NCBI GenBank assembly: GCA_030645615.1
Contig: JAUSNB010000057.1
Location: 12,384-76,383 of the forward strand
Origin: Actinomycetota bacterium
GTDB taxonomy: Bacteria > Actinomycetota > Actinomycetes > S36-B12
Length of the DNA: 64,000 nt
Direction: 5' to 3'
Program-made: the position numbers and the translations under genes
Part shown: in pieces, positions 2,398-12,549 of the stretch
How the letters are laid out: the number at the start of each line of letters is the position of its first letter
How positions within the stretch are numbered: the first letter of the stretch is position 1
The notes under the pieces: generated by a model
What the model saw: only the letters and a program-made list of their open reading frames with translations
The model's database searches: none
What the model was told of the DNA's origin: nothing

Positions 2398-3101
2398 TGA
2401 AGGGGCGCGACATGACGGGAAGGGAGACGGTCTTGCGGACCGCGTACCACACGAAGCTCGAGGAGCTTCGCGGCGATCTCGTGCGCATGTGCGACATGGT
2501 GGCGGGAGCCATGGGGCAGGCGACCACGGCGCTGCTGGAGGCAGACCGCGAACTGGCTGAGGTCGTCATCGGCGGTGACACGGAGATCGACCTGCTCACG
2601 GAGGCGATCGAGGGTCACTGCACCGAACTGCTGGCCCTTCAGGCTCCAGTCGGACACGACCTCAGGGCTGTCGTCGGGGCACTTCGGATCTCGGCGTCCC
2701 TTGAGCGCATGGGGGACCTCGCCGAGCACGTCGCGAAGCAGGCGCGCCTTCGGTCGCCCAGGCATGTCGTTCCGCAGGAGCTGACGCCGGTGTTCGCTGA
2801 CATGGGGCGCATGGGGGAGTCCATCGCCCGCAAGGCCGGGGAGGTGATCGACTCCCAGGATCTGTCCAAGGGGGGCGAGGTCGAGGCCATCGACAGCAAG
2901 GTGGATGCCCTTCACGCCGATCTCTTCTCGACGTTGCAGGACCCCGCCTGGGCATACGGGAACGAGACCCTCGTCGACCTGACGCTTCTCTCCCGGTACT
3001 TCGAGCGATTCGCAGACCACGCCGTGTCGATCACGCGTCGCGTGGTCACCGTGACGACCGGTGAGCCCTACGTTGGGGTTCGGCTCGAGGACCCTCGCTG
3101 A
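2397..3101 (+). CDS. phoU: Phosphate signalling regulator PhoU (GTG 2397 or ATG 2412)
   Basis: Two-repeat PhoU architecture with the ERxGDxAxxIA-like motifs SLERMGDLAEHVAK and YFERFADHAVSI. It lies immediately after pstB. Confidence 0.9.
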   Translation: MKGRDMTGRETVLRTAYHTKLEELRGDLVRMCDMVAGAMGQATTALLEADRELAEVVIGGDTEIDLLTEAIEGHCTELLALQAPVGHDLRAVVGALRISASLERMGDLAEHVAKQARLRSPRHVVPQELTPVFADMGRMGESIARKAGEVIDSQDLSKGGEVEAIDSKVDALHADLFSTLQDPAWAYGNETLVDLTLLSRYFERFADHAVSITRRVVTVTTGEPYVGVRLEDPR

Positions 3102-3105
3102 TTGG

Positions 3106-3351
3106 CTAGTTCGGACTGGCGGACGTGAGCAGGTCGCGCAGTTCCGACGGCTGGGGGACGCGGCCGGAGACGACGACCTTCTCGTCGATGACCAGCGCGG
3201 GCGTGCTCATCACGCCGTAGCCCATGATCTGGCCGTAGTCCTCGACCTTCTCGATGGTGGCGTCGAGGCCGAGCTCGGCGATGGCGTCCTTCGTGACGCG
3301 CTCGAGGTTCTTGCAGTTCGTGCAGCCGGGGCCGAGGACCTTGATGATCAT
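3106..3351 (-). CDS. Small thioredoxin-fold protein (redox-active disulfide protein 2 type), CxxC = GCTNC
   Basis: 81 aa beginning MIIKVLGPGCTNCKNL, ending in a beta-alpha-beta thioredoxin-like C-terminal half. It lies 28 nt downstream of the permease gene on the same strand. Confidence 0.8.
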   Translation of the reverse strand: MIIKVLGPGCTNCKNLERVTKDAIAELGLDATIEKVEDYGQIMGYGVMSTPALVIDEKVVVSGRVPQPSELRDLLTSASPN

Positions 3352-3379
3352 GGCGTTCTCCTGTGTCGGGTCGGTGGTG

Positions 3380-4432
3380 TCAGGCGAGGATGAAGTTGAA
3401 CAGGTAGCCGATGGCGATGATGCCGCTCCCGACGACCGCGATGAACAGGGCGAGGAGCTGGGGCTTGAGGACGCGTCGGAGCAGGATCATCTCCGGCAGC
3501 GAGAGGGCGACGACGGCCATCATGAAGGCGAGGAGGGTGCCCATGGGCAGGCCCTTCTCGTACAGGGCCTGGACCATGGGCATGATGCCCGCGGCATTGG
3601 AGTACAAGGGGATGCCGATGGCGACGGCGATCAGGACGCCGAAGGTGCTGCCTGGCCCGGCATAGGTGGTGAAGAAGTCGGTCGGGACCCAGCCGTGGAT
3701 GACGGCGCCCAGGCCGATCCCGACGAGCAGGTACGGCCAGATCTTACGCAGGATGGTGGCGGCTTCCTCGATGCCCATCTGGATCCGCTGCTCCATGGTC
3801 AGCCCGGCGGCCGGATCGATGGACTGGCCGCCGAGGGTGGTCTCGAAGACGAAGGGCTCGACCCACCGCTCGGCCTTCACCCGGCCGAGGATCCAGCCCG
3901 CCACGATGGCGACGGTGAGGCCGGCGACGACGTAGATGGCCGTGACCTTCCACCCGAAAAGGGTGAGCAGCATGCCGATGGCTATCTCATTGACCAGGGG
4001 GCTGGCAATGAGGAAGCTCATCGTCACCCCGAGGGGGACGCCGGCGGCGACGAAGCCGATGAAGGCCGGCACGGCGCTGCACGAGCAGAACGGGGTGATC
4101 ACGCCCAGCCCCGCAGCCATGACGTTGCCGACACCTTCGCGCTTGCCGCCCAGCAGCGCTCGCGTGCGTTCCACGGACATGAAGGAGCGAAGCACCGTGA
4201 CGATGAAGATGATGCCGACGAGCAGCAGGGCGATCTTGGCGGTGTCGTACAGGAAGAAGTGGATCGTCTCGGTCGCCCGTGACAACGGGTGCAGCCCGAG
4301 TGCGCCGTACAGGACCCAGTCCCACACGTGCTCGTTGAGCAGGTAGAGGCCCACCCATGCCATTGCCGCGCCGACGAGACCCCAGACCTGCCCGCGACGG
4401 GTGGTGGGGACGTGGTCGACAAGGAGTGACAT
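3380..4432 (-). CDS. Polytopic permease of the COG0701 / DUF318 (ArsP-like) type with a TPFCSCS motif
   Basis: 350 aa with many hydrophobic segments. The conserved cysteine motif is GVITPFCSCSAVP. Its partner thioredoxin-fold gene lies downstream and an ArsR-type regulator is divergent. Confidence 0.8.
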   Translation of the reverse strand: MSLLVDHVPTTRRGQVWGLVGAAMAWVGLYLLNEHVWDWVLYGALGLHPLSRATETIHFFLYDTAKIALLLVGIIFIVTVLRSFMSVERTRALLGGKREGVGNVMAAGLGVITPFCSCSAVPAFIGFVAAGVPLGVTMSFLIASPLVNEIAIGMLLTLFGWKVTAIYVVAGLTVAIVAGWILGRVKAERWVEPFVFETTLGGQSIDPAAGLTMEQRIQMGIEEAATILRKIWPYLLVGIGLGAVIHGWVPTDFFTTYAGPGSTFGVLIAVAIGIPLYSNAAGIMPMVQALYEKGLPMGTLLAFMMAVVALSLPEMILLRRVLKPQLLALFIAVVGSGIIAIGYLFNFILA

Positions 4433-4450
4433 GGGTGGGCCTCTCGTGCC

Positions 4451-4582
4451 TCAGCAGCAGGACGAGGCGGCGGCGTCCTTGGGTGCGTCGCCGCAATCAC
4501 AGTTGCATCCGCAGCCCTGCGCGGAGGCCTCGGGGGCGTCGGTGGTCGTGTCGGTGGTCGTGTCGGTAGGCGTGGCGCTCAT
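4451..4582 (-). CDS. Unlisted 43-aa Cys-rich mini-protein MSATPTDTTTDTTTDAPEASAQGCGCNCDCGDAPKDAAASSCC
   Basis: ATG at 4582..4580 is preceded by AGGAGG with a 5-nt spacer. The TGA at 4453..4451 lies 18 nt before the permease ATG. 37 of 42 third codon positions are G/C, as in genuine genes here. In the ORF track it is hidden as the C-terminal tail of a spurious 234-aa ORF. Confidence 0.55.
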   Translation of the reverse strand: MSATPTDTTTDTTTDAPEASAQGCGCNCDCGDAPKDAAASSCC

Positions 4583-4605
4583 GCAGACCTCCTGGGTAGG
4601 TATTC

Positions 4606-4668
4606 GACGTGTGTCTAAATCAATAGTCGCGACCTCTTGGACGTATGTCAAGTAGGTGCGATAGTTGA
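4606..4668. promoter_or_regulatory. Divergent promoter/operator region of the ArsR-type gene and the Cys-peptide operon (repeat-bearing, locally AT-richer)
   Basis: Direct repeat GACGTGTGTC (4606..4615) / GACGTATGTC (4640..4649). Inverted pair TCAATAGTCGC (4620..4630) / GCGATAGTTGA (4658..4668, reverse complement TCAACTATCGC). Internal palindrome GTCGCGAC. Confidence 0.3.
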
Positions 4669-4672
4669 CCCC

Positions 4673-5032
4673 ATGCCGAAGACCCTGCCCATGCTCACCG
4701 ACACCTCCCCGATCTGCTGCACCCCCCTGGGCGCGAGCACGGCCCTGACCGAGGCCGATGCGCTGGGGCTGGCGATAAGGCTCAAGGCGCTCGCGGACCC
4801 AACCCGGCTGCGTCTGCTCGGATACATGCTCGACCAGCCCGAGCAGGAGGCCTGCACGTGCGAGATGGCCCCGTACGTGGGCCTGTCCGAGCCGACGGTC
4901 AGCCATCACCTTAAGACGTTGGAGAGCGCCGGGCTGGTCACCAAGGAGCGTCGCGGGATGAGCGTGCACTACCAGGTGGTCCCCGAGGCCATCCACGCGA
5001 TCGCGAAGGCCCTGCACCTGCAGTGCTGCTGA
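4673..5032 (+). CDS. ArsR/SmtB-family metal(loid)-responsive repressor with three cysteine pairs
   Basis: Winged-HTH core LADPTRLRLLGYM...VSHHLKTLESAGLV. CTC lies in the position of the ArsR ELCVCDL site (EACTCEMAP). There is also an N-terminal ICC and a C-terminal QCC. ATG 4673 is preferred over TTG 4637. Confidence 0.85.
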   Translation: MPKTLPMLTDTSPICCTPLGASTALTEADALGLAIRLKALADPTRLRLLGYMLDQPEQEACTCEMAPYVGLSEPTVSHHLKTLESAGLVTKERRGMSVHYQVVPEAIHAIAKALHLQCC

Positions 5033-5045
5033 GCGGCGGAGGCGG

Positions 5046-5768
5046 TCAGCCGCTGGCGCGAGGACCGTGGTGGATGGGGTCGGGCAGGTCGAGCGGCTCG
5101 GCGGCGCCCGGCCTCGGGTAGAGGTACTCGGTGAGCAGCGCGCCGATCGCGGCACCCACGACCTGGAACACGATGAACATCGGCACGTCGGCCGGGGCGA
5201 TGCCTGAGAACGAGTCGGTGAGGCTGCGACCGATGGTCACGGCGGGATTGGCGAACGACGTCGATGACGTGAAGAAGTAGGCCGCCCCGATCCAGGCCGG
5301 CACCAGCGCCGGGCCGAGGTGGCCGCGCCCCGTCCGCGTCAACGCACCGATCACGAGCAGCAGGCCCGCGGTCGCAACGACCTCGCCGAGCCAGACCGGC
5401 CCGCCCTCGCGCACGTTCGCGGACACATCCCAGGCCGGCAGGCCGAACATCGCATCGGCGAGCGCGACGCCACCGAGTGCGCCGAGGACCTGGGCGGCGA
5501 TGTACAGCACGCCCTCGCCCGCGGGCATCTCGCGGCGGGCCAGCTCGACGCCGGTCACGACCGGGTTGAAGTGCGCGCCGGAGATCGGGCCGAGCATCCA
5601 GATGAGCACGCCGAGGGCGGCGACGGTGGCGAGGGCGTTGATGAGCAGGACGACGGCGAGGTCGTCGGACAGCAGCGTGCCCATGATCCCCGAGCCGACC
5701 ACGGTGGCGACCAGGAGCCCGGTGCCGAGGAATTCCGCAACGGCGCGGCGGGGGAGCGGGGACGTCAT
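5046..5768 (-). CDS. MIP-family channel (aquaglyceroporin-like, probable arsenite/solute channel)
   Basis: 240 aa from ATG 5768. The two half-helix signature boxes are SGAHFNPVVT (NPV instead of NPA) and FANPAVT. The longer ORF-track N-terminus is R/S/W-rich and spurious. Confidence 0.85.
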   Translation of the reverse strand: MTSPLPRRAVAEFLGTGLLVATVVGSGIMGTLLSDDLAVVLLINALATVAALGVLIWMLGPISGAHFNPVVTGVELARREMPAGEGVLYIAAQVLGALGGVALADAMFGLPAWDVSANVREGGPVWLGEVVATAGLLLVIGALTRTGRGHLGPALVPAWIGAAYFFTSSTSFANPAVTIGRSLTDSFSGIAPADVPMFIVFQVVGAAIGALLTEYLYPRPGAAEPLDLPDPIHHGPRASG

Positions 5769-5787
5769 GGCGGGTCCTCTCGGGGGG

Positions 5788-5826
5788 TTGACAGCGCAGA
5801 GTACCTCAATAATCATTGACTCAATG
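5788..5826 (+). promoter_or_regulatory. Candidate promoter plus ArsR-type operator overlapping the start of the ArsR-ArsC fusion gene
   Basis: TTGACA (5788..5793), a 17-nt spacer, then AATCAT (5811..5816), 7 nt before ATG 5824. TCAAT/ATTGA half-sites at 5806..5810, 5815..5819 and 5821..5825 form TCAATAATCATTGA and the perfect palindrome CATTGACTCAATG. Confidence 0.35.
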
Positions 5827-6546
5827 AACCTTGAAGCGAAGCGCGACCAGGTGCCTGAGCCGCCGGCCGAACGCGCCCGTCGGGCCCGCGTGCTCGCGGC
5901 GCTGGGCGACCCGACCAGGCTGGCCGTGGTCGACCTGCTCCAGGTCCAGGACCTCTCCCCGGACGCCCTCGCGGCAGCGCTCGAGGTCCCGGGCAACCTC
6001 CTCGCCCACCACCTGAAGGTGCTCGAGTCAGCGGGGGTCGTGAATCGGCACCACTCCCAGCGGGACCGTCGCCGCACCTACGTCCGGCTGCTGCCGGACT
6101 CGCTTGAGGGGCTGCTGCCGGCGGCTTCGGGCACGCCCGCCGCCCGCGTGGTGTTCGTCTGCACCCACAACTCCGCCCGCTCGGTGCTGGCGGAGGCGTT
6201 GTGGCAGTCGGTGAGTGACGTCCCCGCCGCGTCGGCGGGCTCCGAGCCTGCCGAACGGGTGAACCCGCAGGCGCTGGCCGCGGCCGCGCGGGCCGGCCTG
6301 GCGGTGGCGAAGTCCCGGCCCGAGTCTGTCGAGGACGTCCTTCGGGCCGGCGACGTCGTCGTGACCGTGTGCGACGCCGTAAACGAGTCGCTCGACATCC
6401 CGCCGCACCTGCACTGGTCCGTGCCCGACCCCGCTGCCATCGGCTCGCCCGCGGCATTCGACGAGGCGATCACCGACCTCCGCGAGCGGGTCACCTTCCT
6501 TGCTCCTCGCATTACGCAAACCCATCCCAGAAGGGCACCACGATGA
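5824..6546 (+). CDS. Fusion protein: ArsR-type winged-HTH domain + low-molecular-weight phosphatase-type arsenate reductase domain
   Basis: The N-terminal half has LGDPTRLAVVDLL...LAHHLKVLESAGVV. The C-terminal half has the CX5R(S/T) P-loop VFVCTHNSARS and the ...VTVCDAV...HWSVPDP pattern. ATGA overlap with the next gene. Confidence 0.8.
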   Translation: MNLEAKRDQVPEPPAERARRARVLAALGDPTRLAVVDLLQVQDLSPDALAAALEVPGNLLAHHLKVLESAGVVNRHHSQRDRRRTYVRLLPDSLEGLLPAASGTPAARVVFVCTHNSARSVLAEALWQSVSDVPAASAGSEPAERVNPQALAAAARAGLAVAKSRPESVEDVLRAGDVVVTVCDAVNESLDIPPHLHWSVPDPAAIGSPAAFDEAITDLRERVTFLAPRITQTHPRRAPR

Positions 6547-7196
6547 CCGACACCCACCCGCACGACGACATCCCGCTCGAGCACCTCGTCGTGCTGCGGT
6601 CCTCCTCGGCCCTGCTGCAGCGGGAGTTCGAGGGCACGTTCGGCACCGAGACGATCGAGCGGTTCCTGCACTCGTCCTACGACGACTTCGGCGCCCGGCT
6701 GACGAACGACCGCTACCTCACCACCTTCGCCGAGCGGTTTGCCCGCGAGCGGCTCAACGCCTTGGCGCGGGTCGAGGGCAAGAGCGACGACGGGCGGCCG
6801 ATCGTGCTCTTCCTGTGCACCCACAACGCCGGTCGGTCGCAGATGGCCCTGGGCTTCTTCCGCGCGCTGGCCGGCGACCGCGCGCTCGCGTGGTCCGGCG
6901 GGTCGGAGCCCGGGAACCAGGTGAACCCGGCAGCGGTGGCCGCGATGGCCGAGCTGGGGATCGACATCTCCGGTGAGTACCCCAAGCCGTGGACCGACGA
7001 GATCGTCCGTGCGGCCGATGTCGTCGTGACCATGGGATGCGGCGATGCCTGCCCGGTGTTCCCGGGCAAGCGCTACGAGGACTGGGTCCTCACGGACCCG
7101 GCCGGGCTCGATGTCGATTCGGTGCGGCCGATCCGCGACGAGGTCAAGGCGCGCGTCGAGGATCTGCTGACCCGTCTGGACGTACCGGTCGGCTGA
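6543..7196 (+). CDS. arsC: Arsenate reductase, LMW-PTP / thioredoxin-coupled type, with an ~85-aa N-terminal helical extension
   Basis: P-loop LFLCTHNAGRS plus the resolving cysteine pair in VVTMGCGDACPVFPG...DWVLTDPA. The N-terminal ~85 aa has no phosphatase motifs. Confidence 0.85.
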   Translation: MTDTHPHDDIPLEHLVVLRSSSALLQREFEGTFGTETIERFLHSSYDDFGARLTNDRYLTTFAERFARERLNALARVEGKSDDGRPIVLFLCTHNAGRSQMALGFFRALAGDRALAWSGGSEPGNQVNPAAVAAMAELGIDISGEYPKPWTDEIVRAADVVVTMGCGDACPVFPGKRYEDWVLTDPAGLDVDSVRPIRDEVKARVEDLLTRLDVPVG

Positions 7197-7247
7197 GGAC
7201 TCGCGGCTCGTCACAAGGCCGCCAACCGGGATGGGCCGGACATGGAG

Positions 7248-7284
7248 CCGGGACGCGCCGCCGGAGGATGGTGGCGCGTCCCGG
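7248..7284. terminator. Bidirectional hairpin between convergent arsC and the dsrE-like gene
   Basis: Perfect 12-bp stem CCGGGACGCGCC (7248..7259) / GGCGCGTCCCGG (7273..7284) with a 13-nt loop. No U-tract, as is common in high-GC actinobacteria. Confidence 0.5.
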
Positions 7285-7301
7285 AGCCTGGGACCTTCCG
7301 G

Positions 7302-7811
7302 TCAGATGAACAGCAGCTGGGCGCCGTCCGTCATCTCGATGAAGTCGCTCGCACTGATGATCCCGTCGACGCCGTCCCAGAGGTCGTCCTTGGTCAGGTG
7401 GTTCATGTCGGCGCTGAGCCGGCAGGCCCACACGTGCCCGCCCGAGCCCTTGATGAGTTCGAGGAACTCCGGCACCGGCGGGATGTCGAGGGCGTCCATC
7501 GACTTCTGCATCATGCGGGTCGCCATCTTGGTCATCCCGGGCAGCGGGGTCAGTGCCATCGGCATGTGTGCGGCAGTGTTGCCGACGGGGGTGAACTTCA
7601 GGCGTTCCATCCGGCCTTTCGTGATCATGTCGAAGCCCCAGAACGTGAAGAACAGGTGCAGTTCGACGCCCTCGCCCAGTGCGGCGTTGCCGAGGATCAG
7701 GCCCGGGTAGGCCATGTCGAGGTTGCCCTTGGAGCAGATGATGGCCAGCTTGCGATAGGAGTTGTCATCGTCATCGAAGCTCGGGACGATCATGTCCTGC
7801 GTTGCGGTCAT
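7302..7811 (-). CDS. DsrE/DsrF-family sulfur-relay protein (DsrE3-like)
   Basis: 169 aa from ATG 7811. Rossmann-like DsrE pattern KLAIICSKG...FFTFWG and a candidate active-site Cys in GGHVWACRLS. It is the last gene of the sqr-tusE-dsrE string. Confidence 0.75.
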   Translation of the reverse strand: MTATQDMIVPSFDDDDNSYRKLAIICSKGNLDMAYPGLILGNAALGEGVELHLFFTFWGFDMITKGRMERLKFTPVGNTAAHMPMALTPLPGMTKMATRMMQKSMDALDIPPVPEFLELIKGSGGHVWACRLSADMNHLTKDDLWDGVDGIISASDFIEMTDGAQLLFI

Positions 7812-7836
7812 GGCAGTGCCTTTCAGGGGATGGGGG

Positions 7837-8151
7837 CTAGACACAGCCGAGCGGCTTCGGCAGGCCGGCGATGTACGCCATCTTCTTGGCCGGCTTCTTG
7901 GGGAACAGCACGAACAGCTGCTTGGTGTCGACGCCGCCCGCGGTGGAGACGCGGCGGATGGTGGGGGTCTCGCCCTGCGCCTTGAAGTCCTCGCGCAGGA
8001 AGCGGATGACGTTCCAGTGCTCGTCGGTCATGTCGACCCCGATGGCCGCGGCCAGGGCCTTGCCCATGTCCTCGTCCCACTGGTCGTACTGGGTCATGAA
8101 GCCCTCGTCGTCGACGGCGACGTCGCGCCCGGCGATGGTGGTAGTTGGCAT
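7837..8151 (-). CDS. TusE/DsrC-family sulfur carrier (TusE-type, single penultimate Cys)
   Basis: 104 aa ending ...IAGLPKPLGCV. Strong SD GAAGGAGAG upstream. No second Cys ~11 residues before the terminal Cys. Confidence 0.8.
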   Translation of the reverse strand: MPTTTIAGRDVAVDDEGFMTQYDQWDEDMGKALAAAIGVDMTDEHWNVIRFLREDFKAQGETPTIRRVSTAGGVDTKQLFVLFPKKPAKKMAYIAGLPKPLGCV

Positions 8152-11442: not shown

Positions 11443-12549
11443 ATGACCGAAGGGACCCGCGCGATGCTGCCGATCGTTCTGCCGGTCAACCAGTTCGACC
11501 ACTTCTACCGAGGCGGCGACCGCATCGGCGCGCTGCGCCACGGCCCCGGTGGCCCCCAGCGCCCGGAGGAGTGGATCGGGTCGACGACGGCCCGATTCGG
11601 CCAGGCGCCGCAGGGGCTCAGCGCGCTCCCGGACGGCCGGCTGCTCGTGTCCGCGATCGAGGCCGACCCGCAGGCCTGGCTGGGCGCGGATCACGTCCAC
11701 CGCTACGGCGCCAGCACGGAACTGCTGGTCAAGCTCCTCGACCTCGACCAGCGGCTGCCCGTCCACCTCCACCCCAATCGAGCATTCGCCCGCGCGCATC
11801 TCGGGCTGGCGCACGGCAAGACCGAGGCCTGGTACGTCCTCGACGCCCCGCCAGGCGCGGAGGTGGGGGTGGGTTTTGCCGAGACGACCGGCCTCGGGCA
11901 GGTCGAGGCCTGGGTGGCCGACCGCGACAGCGAGGCTTTGCTCGGCGCCCTGCGCAGGCGAGCCGTCCGCCCGGGCGATGCCATGCTCGTCCCGGCCGGG
12001 CTGCCCCACTCGGTGGGCGCCGGCGTGTTCGTCCTGGAACTGCAGGAGCCGACCGACCTGTCCATCCTGCTGGAGTGGCAGGGCTTCGCGGTCGATGGCG
12101 CCAAGGATGGCCACCTCGACCTCGGCTTCCCGACCGCCCTGCAGGCCCTCGACCTGGCGGCTGTGTCTCCCGCCGACCTGGACCGACTGGTGCTGCCGCG
12201 CGAGGAGATCGAACGGGCCGGCCTGGCCTCTGTCCTGCCGCCGGCTGCCGAGGGCTACTTCCGGGCCCACCGGGTGGATACCTCCGCAGGGCCCGTGTCC
12301 CTCGCTGCGGGCTTCGCCATCGTCCTCGTGCTGGACGGCCGCGGCATCCTGGCCAGCCCGGGCGGCTCGCTGGAGGTCGCGCGCGGCGACGTCGTGCTGG
12401 TCCCGCACGCATGCGGCGACTACACGCTCCACGGGCAGGCGAAGCATGGGGGCCATGCGCCGGACGCCGTGGTGGCCATCGTGTGCCGCCCGCCCGCCCC
12501 GGATGCACCGCTGCCCGAGATGACCGCGGCACCCGGGGAGCTCGCGTGA
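11443..12549 (+). CDS. Class I mannose-6-phosphate isomerase-like cupin protein
   Basis: Motifs LVKLLD...LPVHLHP, GKTEAWYVL, VPAGLPHSVGAGVFVLELQEPTD. Confidence 0.7.
   Translation: MTEGTRAMLPIVLPVNQFDHFYRGGDRIGALRHGPGGPQRPEEWIGSTTARFGQAPQGLSALPDGRLLVSAIEADPQAWLGADHVHRYGASTELLVKLLDLDQRLPVHLHPNRAFARAHLGLAHGKTEAWYVLDAPPGAEVGVGFAETTGLGQVEAWVADRDSEALLGALRRRAVRPGDAMLVPAGLPHSVGAGVFVLELQEPTDLSILLEWQGFAVDGAKDGHLDLGFPTALQALDLAAVSPADLDRLVLPREEIERAGLASVLPPAAEGYFRAHRVDTSAGPVSLAAGFAIVLVLDGRGILASPGGSLEVARGDVVLVPHACGDYTLHGQAKHGGHAPDAVVAIVCRPPAPDAPLPEMTAAPGELA

Follow-up and report, generated by a model that had tools for sequence, protein, structure and literature searches.

In the 64,000-nucleotide (nt) stretch of Actinomycetota DNA analyzed here (the window; positions 12,384 to 76,383 of contig JAUSNB010000057.1, assembly GCA_030645615.1), a small cysteine-rich open reading frame (ORF) of 43 codons stands at the head of a minus-strand operon which continues with genes for a permease of the ArsP family and a small thioredoxin-like protein and which diverges from the gene for an ArsR/SmtB-type regulator (Table 1). 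Judged by its own sequence and by those of its counterparts, the small ORF is very probably a genuine gene and the first cistron of this operon, and its product is a candidate, with a probability of roughly 0.55, for a mini-metallothionein that buffers arsenic or a soft metal and perhaps passes its ligand to the permease. The module lies in an arsenic-resistance cluster, as genes for a MIP-family channel, an ArsR-ArsC fusion, and a second ArsC adjoin it; the two arsC-type genes overlap by 4 nt and both are divergent from the MIP gene.

Table 1. Features of the operon headed by the small ORF, of its control region, and of the adjoining arsenic-resistance genes (aa, amino acids; LMW, low-molecular-weight; HTH, helix-turn-helix; SD, Shine-Dalgarno).
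Feature	Coordinates	Strand	Evidence or remark
Thioredoxin-like protein, 81 aa, CxxC (GCTNC; C10-T-N-C13)	3106..3351	minus	PF13192, 102 bits
ArsP-family permease, 350 aa, TPFCSCS motif	3380..4432	minus	PF03773 (ArsP_1), 248.7 bits vs cut-off 32.3
Spacer, 18 nt, with weak SD sequence GAGAGG	4450..4433	minus	small-ORF stop to permease ATG 4432
Cys-rich small ORF, 43 codons, CxCxCxC ... CC-stop	4582..4451	minus	first cistron of operon; read directly
Tandem repeat, 12 nt x 3 copies, in frame, encodes TDTTTDTTT	4538..4577	minus	repeat search and peptide alignment
SD sequence AGGAGG	4593..4588	minus	5-nt spacer TCTGC (4587..4583) before ATG 4582
Dyad 2, TTAGACACACGTCGAA, probable operator 2 over predicted transcription start	4603..4618	minus	conservation
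Candidate -10 element GACTAT, 17 nt past TTGACA	4623..4628	minus	weak, inferred from alignment
Dyad 1 (imperfect), TTGACATACGTCCAA, probable ArsR operator 1; TTGACA 4651..4646 likely -35	4637..4651	minus	conservation
ArsR/SmtB regulator, 119 aa, divergent, Rv2640c-like	4673..5032	plus	NF033788, 81.9 bits vs cut-off 55
MIP-family channel, aquaglyceroporin-type	5046..5768	minus	PF00230, 97 bits; gene call
ArsR-HTH fused to LMW-phosphatase (ArsC-type) domain	5824..6546	plus	HTH_20/HTH_5 and LMWPc
LMW-phosphatase-type arsenate reductase candidate	6543..7196	plus	Phosphatase-like_N and LMWPc
DsrE2-like sulfur-carrier gene beside ars cluster	7302..7844	minus	PF13686, 103 bits; NF047629, 96 vs cut-off 210

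On the minus strand the small ORF opens with the ATG at 4582..4580 and closes with the TGA at 4453..4451, and its 43-aa product, MSATPTDTTTDTTTDAPEASAQGCGCNCDCGDAPKDAAASSCC, carries six Cys in its last 20 residues. A sequence-only reading of this DNA had described the SD sequence, its 5-nt spacer, the start codon, the length of the ORF, and the 18 nt to the permease start, and had listed paired cysteines throughout the module (TPFCSCS in the permease, GCTNC in the thioredoxin-like protein, ICC, CTC, and QCC in the regulator, and the six Cys of the peptide); every one of these elements is present in the sequence. The GC contents at the first, second, and third codon positions of the small ORF are 0.50, 0.75, and 0.86, respectively, and the third-position value lies in the range of the neighboring genes (0.85-0.98), as had been proposed for a coding sequence, with the true intergenic region (4583..4672) having 51% GC. 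In the ORF listing that accompanied the sequence, the small ORF appears merely as the tail of a 234-aa ORF with a GTG start (4451..5155, minus strand), as had likewise been noticed. The long ORF was rejected as a real gene, as it crosses the arsR gene in antisense orientation and as SD sequence, ATG, and homologues are confined to its last 43 codons. The warning that annotation could miss the small ORF was borne out for this listing, where it is masked, but not for the gene callers used on public assemblies, which predicted the window ORF and three relatives; on a public contig, the sequence of which agrees with window positions 3199..7651 at 100% identity, the predicted product is exactly this 43-aa peptide.

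The window peptide has neither a signal peptide nor a leader-core architecture. In an AlphaFold2 (AF2) model it displays zero secondary structure, with a mean predicted local distance difference test (pLDDT) score of 59, and such a structureless model of low confidence is compatible with an apo-metallothionein but is no evidence for one. As a peptide rich in Thr, Ser, and Cys which is encoded beside a membrane protein, it might be regarded as the precursor of a modified or exported product, either resembling ribosomally synthesized and post-translationally modified peptides or being secreted as a thiol peptide moved by the permease. The missing signal peptide and leader-core layout, the fact that no modification enzyme, protease, or ATP-binding cassette exporter was found nearby at the dozen loci examined, where the neighbors are the regulator, permease, thioredoxin-like, and ars genes, and the membership of the permease in a family of small-molecule efflux make this a very unlikely explanation.

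In order to see how often such ORFs occur by chance, 1.02 Mb of DNA (the window and the fetched loci) was scanned on both strands for ORFs of 15-90 aa with an ATG behind an SD sequence. Among 1,933 small ORFs obtained, 24 combined four or more Cys with a Cys content of 13% or higher, and 18 of these 24 were the window peptide or counterparts of it adjoining an arsR gene. Two surveys supplied counterparts. In the first, one genome per species was scanned with the permease, of which 423 relatives were confirmed in genome contigs, and 80 actinobacterial loci were obtained; in the second, metagenomes were scanned with the regulator as query and further loci were added. The thioredoxin-like gene lies directly downstream of the permease gene in 80 of 80 loci. 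Upstream of the permease gene a co-directional gene for an ArsR of the CVC type is found in 65 of the 80 loci, a divergent regulator gene of the window type in nine, and neither of them in six. Two of the nine divergent loci (L075 and L060) possess a long leader that holds a Cys-rich ORF, encoding a 53-aa peptide at L075, MTTCCATTESGAACCTSVAPSAVAVLEATKAKTACECDCACECTDGKCSPGCC, and a 58-aa peptide at L060, from Cryobacterium sp. MP_M3 (MKSRCGG...GGCCGS...DCCSPS...VTCC). At L060, the peptide stop and the permease start are separated by a spacer of about 100 nt (3899-3994) with an inverted repeat, GGCGTGGG...CCCACGCC, which may be a partial terminator that yields more peptide than permease. A protein library yielded P0005, which is related to the L060 peptide, contains four CC pairs, and is called as 68 aa; the counterpart of the 58-aa L060 ORF begins at an internal Met of it.

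The metagenome survey also revealed a 51-aa peptide ahead of the permease at L089 (=P0003), MTACCTPTQSTACCTPAEAQGTVLTEAAPKATCNCDCTCNSTEDAKASACC, and, at L088, L090, and L091, 24-aa peptides of the form MTFCCEAEAVEALE(V/T)C(D/C)P(S/T)ETSCC (24-mer sequence, MTFCCEAEAVEALETCCPTETSCC), which are not followed by a permease gene. A stand-alone peptide of 26 aa (MSDCC...GCC), MSDCCDTTDCCPTPEDKQGCCDTGCC, was detected at L043 when all fetched DNA was scanned; its gene is divergent from that of another ArsR of the CC/CxC type and is followed by a hairpin and a convergent gene. At these four loci the peptide gene is the sole gene divergent from the regulator and a convergent gene comes next. A long ORF beside the L043 peptide resembles, when read by eye, a coenzyme A (CoA)-disulfide reductase with a rhodanese domain. 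The 53-aa peptide P0004 from the protein library is encoded on 16 contigs, always in an arrangement in which the regulator gene is divergent from an operon of peptide, permease, and thioredoxin, and at L140-144 the regulator heads an arsR-acr3-arsC operon. In total, the peptide gene is divergent from an ArsR/SmtB-type regulator in the window and at L043, L060, L075, L088-L091, and L140-147, the same first-cistron slot is filled at L075, L089, L140-145, L060, and L146/147, and small ORFs with Cys pairs and a terminal CC occur behind the conserved promoter/operator in at least 4 other actinobacterial lineages. Every peptide found ends with CC directly before the stop codon.

When the peptides of subfamily A were aligned, all Cys columns were kept whereas other residues varied, and synonymous changes between TGC and TGT were present. 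Within subfamilies the ratio of nonsynonymous to synonymous substitution rates (dN/dS) is 0.27-0.51 and differences in length are in frame. The positional counterparts, the preservation of the frame and of all Cys, and dN/dS values below 1 uphold the proposal that the window ORF is a genuine first cistron.

Several observations weigh against the view that this gene is a conserved metal-binding component of the module. Seven of the nine divergent loci have a leader of 87-150 nt without any small ORF, and the peptide is absent at the loci of the closest permease relatives, L001 (90% identity) and L002 (89%), as it is at L003, L054, L064, L071, L080, and L083-L087. Apart from M-(T/S)-x-C-C, CC pairs, and the CC-stop, the subfamilies A, B, and C have little in common; motifs are shared but homology is undemonstrated, and common descent is not established. 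The window peptide aligns with members of subfamily A (L089 and P0004) in the C-terminal half alone (CxCxCxC...CC), and its TDTTTDTTT repeat stands where the relatives have N-terminal CC pairs, four Cys being lost according to the alignment; the underlying 12-nt repeat looks like a recent slippage that displaced these pairs. In comparisons of the window peptide with subfamily A, dN/dS is 0.58-0.67, and thus the window copy may be under relaxed constraint.

Taken further, these observations would suit a non-functional or decaying insertion, that is, an ORF open by chance or one for which selection was lost in this genome: it is missing in the closest relatives, its N-terminal half is a slippage repeat without the Cys pairs of the relatives, and large protein libraries give no match to its sequence. 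The SD sequence, ATG, frame, and stop codon are, however, intact and the third codon positions are coding-like, the CxCxCxC...CC-stop pattern aligns with that of L089 and P0004, such ORFs are very rare by chance, and the library results are uninformative (see below), all of which renders decay quite unlikely. As for the distribution, the conservation check proposed by the sequence-only reading gave a divided answer, counterparts being present in other lineages but absent in the two closest relatives and in five other genome loci of the divergent type; absence from close relatives had been named there as grounds for refutation, and formally this is what was observed. The positions of the window, of the L075/P0004 clade, and of L060 in the permease tree are three separate ones, each beside relatives that lack the peptide, a pattern from which we conclude that the peptide has repeatedly been lost or transferred. 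Its absence from near relatives indicates that it is dispensable for permease function; judged by this patchy distribution, it belongs to the accessory and not to the fixed components of the module. The 150-nt leader of L001 (3851-4000) contains the conserved operator but lacks a Cys ORF; since it bears no resemblance to the small ORF of the window, a decayed peptide gene in this leader was rejected. At L150, on a Streptomyces plasmid, the slot is occupied by a 56-aa "hypothetical protein" that is not Cys-rich.

No described family had been recognized for the peptide, and this was also the outcome of profile searches: a Pfam scan that included PF02069 and other metallothionein families left the window peptide without a match at E<=1 and seven relatives without one at E<=10, and none of the eight peptides is hit by an NCBIfam model. 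When the window peptide was used as query, a word-indexed homology search returned nothing, and a phmmer search against 1.84 billion representatives returned just two repeat-driven false matches. By exact look-up in a clustered collection, six of seven peptides (24-58 aa, that of the window included) were absent, as was a 63-aa reading of the L060 ORF. Large protein libraries appear to omit products of less than about 50 aa, and since the window peptide is absent there although it is called on a contig, the negative library results are uninformative. With the L075 peptide, no match in plasmids was obtained by tblastn, and keyword searches of the open-access literature yielded no description of these peptides.

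Upstream of the small ORF, the two dyads listed in Table 1 probably act as ArsR operators, as suggested by their conservation: TTGAC and GTC of dyad 1 are invariant in 12 aligned loci, whether the peptide is present or not, and the same is true for TTAGA..TC.AA of dyad 2. In the aligned loci the start codon of the first cistron is located 15-35 nt past the second dyad, and in the window transcription is predicted to start about 25-35 nt upstream of the small-ORF ATG. A consensus promoter scan of the window called no site and the promoter was therefore assigned solely by alignment with relatives, in which GACTAT aligns with CATACT or CACACT and with the consensus match TTGACA-16-CATAGT in L091. 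The SD sequence and start codon of the small ORF, CCAGGAGGtCTgCATG, are collinear with those of the permease gene, CCAGGAGGcCTcATG, at L083, which has no peptide. At L101, a (GGCAGT)n microsatellite of about 9 copies (around 2900-2960), upstream of the regulator gene at 3001, comes directly after an operator-like dyad of the Rv2640c-type regulator.

The position of the ORF also raises the question of whether its translation matters and not its product. If a shortage of charged tRNA-Cys, as might arise when arsenic depletes the thiol pools, made ribosomes pause on the Cys codons and the pause altered RNA structure or coupling, translation of the permease could be tuned by a cysteine-sensing leader ORF and the peptide itself would be irrelevant. 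Short polycysteine ORFs act in this way in mycobacteria, which are actinobacteria themselves, these ORFs being leaderless, Cys-responsive attenuators with a run of Cys codons that precede genes of cysteine metabolism (10.1101/834739), and the window ORF is similar to them as an unannotated Cys-rich first cistron of an actinobacterial operon. The first cistron is also close to the permease start, the distance of 18 nt in the window being only 4 nt (TGAnnnnATG) at L075, L089, and L140, which implies translational coupling there, and in the minimum-energy RNA fold the Cys-coding block pairs with the 3' end of the small ORF. However, the window ORF differs in having a strong SD sequence and a predicted 5' leader, so that it is not leaderless, in having Cys in a pattern (CxCxCxC, spaced CC, and terminal CC) and not in one run, and in its arsenic context, with downstream genes that are not of cysteine metabolism. 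Further points against a leader ORF are that the four loci with stand-alone peptides have no downstream gene to regulate and that non-Cys positions, too, show dN/dS values below 1. The RNA fold of the region is ordinary (z = -1.38) and an Rfam search of 4350..4750 gave no match at E<=1; owing to these two results a structured RNA or riboswitch in 4350..4750 was rejected. Altogether, a leader function in place of a peptide function seems unlikely.

Turning to the partners of the peptide, the regulator, the start of which (4673) was set by the gene call on the public contig and by homologues, scores 142 bits with the Rv2640c equivalog model NF041413, just under the cut-off of 155, and its best match among solved structures is SmtB. 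It possesses Cys15-Cys16 (ICC), C60xC62 (CTC), and a terminal Cys118-Cys119 (QCC). In alignments, Cys15-Cys16 fall on the CC of the Corynebacterium ArsR, CgArsR (6j0e), the CTC motif has its first Cys opposite Cys61 of SmtB (alpha-3), where the ArsR of R773 has its CVC, and the terminal CC falls on Cys95-Cys96 of the Acidithiobacillus ArsR, AfArsR (6j05). With Cys at all three known arsenite-site positions of ArsR proteins, the regulator looks like an arsenite sensor, and it may be a multi-site sensor or one for a broad range of ligands. Opposite homologous regulators lie an ArsM-like gene (L082) and ArsI/CadI (L103, plasmid H1), and on plasmids the gene opposite an Rv2640c-type regulator is mostly one for ArsI/CadI or for an FAD oxidoreductase. 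The match of the permease to PF03773 covers profile positions 4-294 of 294, the full length, and the thioredoxin-like protein is assigned to the "MTH895/ArsE family" by TIGR00412 (109.5 bits vs cut-off 62). The description of the permease-thioredoxin pair as functionally unresolved holds only in part, as PF03773 is the ArsP family, which has a characterized member for methylarsenite efflux (PMC6205960), and the thioredoxin-like protein is of the MTH895/ArsE type.

A metal- or metalloid-binding role of the peptide is suggested by its patterned Cys, the missing fold, the position as first cistron with a strong SD sequence, the Cys-rich ArsR, and the stand-alone occurrence of counterparts. In such a mini-metallothionein model, the ArsR would hold the operon repressed in the absence of trivalent arsenicals or other thiophilic metals. 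Once such a ligand is present, the peptide, a small cytosolic thiol peptide without a predicted fold of its own, would be made ahead of the other products and translated best. The metalloid would be bound, and thereby buffered, by the CxCxCxC block and the C-terminal Cys-Cys; in permease operons the ligand would be handed off by thiol exchange to the CxC of the permease and then exported, and the thiols would be maintained in the reduced state by the CxxC thioredoxin-like protein. The gene anatomy, the common control region, the recurrence of such peptides in one slot, selection on the Cys pattern, and the arsenical gene context are what was observed; ligand binding, the identity of the ligand, the hand-off to the permease, and the role of the thioredoxin-like protein are what we infer here, and the hand-off to the CxC motif, plausible as it is, is so in every part. 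Considering the ArsC and MIP genes in the window, the Acr3-ArsC, ArsM-like, and ArsI/CadI genes and the CVC-type ArsR at other loci, and the Cys of the regulator, a trivalent arsenical is the likeliest ligand. The ligand could instead be Cd, Hg, Cu, or Zn; cadI, a neighbor of Rv2640c, is induced by cadmium. A persulfide or redox role is possible as well, given the nearby DsrE2-like gene and the long ORF at L043; both alternatives count against the model.

The latter role can be formulated as that of a redox or sulfur-carrier peptide, the CC pairs of which chelate no metal but alternate among dithiol, disulfide, and persulfide states, the peptide being a dedicated substrate of the adjacent thioredoxin-like protein; reduction of pentavalent organoarsenicals and carriage of sulfane sulfur may be proposed as examples. 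The strict linkage of a CxxC thioredoxin-like protein to the permease speaks for it, and sulfur-trafficking genes may recur near these modules, as exemplified by the DsrE2-like gene beside the window cluster and by the ORF at L043 with its resemblance to CoA-disulfide reductase/rhodanese as read by eye. Yet the stand-alone peptides of L088, L090, and L091 have no adjoining thioredoxin-like gene, and most permease-thioredoxin modules lack any peptide. Alternating CxCxCxC blocks, moreover, typify metal-thiolate clusters, whereas redox-active sites do not typically have them. We consider this explanation improbable. Among the functions that the sequence-only reading had offered, metallothionein or metallochaperone is the best fit, with the stand-alone pairs being arranged as SmtB/SmtA; its interpretation as a whole is partly supported, in that the gene is real and belongs to no modeled family but is accessory, its function being deduced.

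The small Cys-rich peptide genes were compared with known systems. In the SmtA/SmtB pair of cyanobacteria (PF02069), a small Cys-rich gene is likewise divergent from that of an ArsR/SmtB sensor, repression being presumed, and this layout is matched by the stand-alone regulator-peptide pairs of L088, L090, L091, and L043. The window peptide differs from SmtA in having no PF02069 match, no His ligands, and no zinc-finger-like fold, and the actinobacterial peptides differ in that they are rich in vicinal CC, are located in arsenic clusters, and often form part of a permease operon. In size and Cys content they resemble metallothioneins, with 6 Cys in 43 aa in the window and up to 12 in 53 aa in relatives. 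ArsD, which binds As(III) through vicinal Cys pairs, is similar in being a cytosolic protein of ars operons with Cys pairs that feeds efflux, a function that is putative for the window peptide. ArsD is, however, a folded, thioredoxin-like protein of about 120 aa with an ATPase as partner, whereas the window-type peptides have 24-58 aa and no predicted fold; the window peptide gave no ArsD family match (Pfam, NCBIfam), and any partner it has would be a secondary permease. As a cytosolic arsenite metallochaperone, ArsD feeds As(III) to ArsA (PMC6205960).

The SAO locus of anaerobes encodes SaoE, for efflux of the ArsP family, the thioredoxin-like SaoT, and SaoC, which ends in CC-COOH, averages 158 aa, and carries a signal or lipoprotein peptide (10.1101/2022.07.06.499078). 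The combination of an ArsP-family transporter, a small thioredoxin-like protein, and a Cys-Cys-COOH protein is thus shared with the window module. SaoC, which was compared by description, differs from the acidic or polar peptides of 24-58 aa, which have no hydrophobic N-terminus, and the window permease and thioredoxin-like protein match the SaoE and SaoT models weakly (105 vs cut-off 325 and 13.7 vs cut-off 65, respectively). Another small protein with CC pairs, a GDCCVxC (seleno)protein (NF041374) of 72 aa with 12 Cys, is encoded on the Sulfuricella denitrificans plasmid NC_022358 (L151, 2286-2504), directly upstream of the gene for a homologous, 51%-identical permease, which it overlaps by 4 nt, in the order arsC-acr3-X-permease-...-arsM. 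This proteobacterial protein scores 111.5 bits with NF041374, which matches neither the window peptide nor its relatives; it is of the zinc-ribbon type (CxxC...CxxC and GDCCVFC) and is not a first cistron. From these comparisons it follows that unrelated small Cys-pair proteins have been recruited repeatedly beside this permease family, the actinobacterial peptides adding one more case. As regards the permease itself, the Cys pair of the TPFCSCS type is reportedly important in ArsP, and we know of no such peptide in the ars operon of Campylobacter jejuni. ArsP of C. jejuni, which exports methylarsenite and roxarsone(III), shares the PF03773 family with the window permease, and it is the one member of this family for which efflux of trivalent organoarsenicals has been shown (PMC6205960).

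A more far-reaching version of the metallothionein model, which we put forward tentatively and think unlikely in its entirety, is that the peptides represent an undescribed, Actinomycetota-specific class of arsenic-responsive micro-metallothioneins, putative dedicated carriers of As(III) or methylarsenite (MAs(III)) that would take up the metalloid with their vicinal Cys pairs, deliver it from their C-terminal Cys-Cys to the CxC gate of ArsP-family permeases and have their thiols reset by the thioredoxin-like partner. If true, they would constitute the first case of a metallochaperone serving an arsenic exporter other than an ATPase, and this would explain why the unrelated SaoC, GDCCVxC, and window-type peptides are repeatedly associated with this permease family. 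The ars operons are among the best-catalogued resistance systems, yet this component, which several actinobacterial lineages carry downstream of a conserved ArsR operator, alone or in an ArsP-type efflux operon, has no Pfam or NCBIfam model. Should the peptides bind trivalent arsenicals, a cytosolic step of buffering or hand-off would be added to efflux by secondary permeases, the obligate pairing of permease and thioredoxin would be explained in part, and very short natural tags (24-58 residues) that bind arsenic or soft metals would become available for biosensing or bioremediation. The case also illustrates that functional genes of less than 50 codons are invisible to the libraries searched and are easily masked by spurious long ORFs in GC-rich DNA.

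Relatives of the window permease were also encountered on plasmids of enterobacteria: on the Citrobacter amalonaticus plasmid NZ_CP011133 (L152, 2033-4549), genes for permease, thioredoxin, rhodanese, and a DUF2703 protein are accompanied by a divergent gene for a 75-aa zinc-ribbon protein, and a homologous permease is present on 67 Citrobacter and 20 Klebsiella plasmids.

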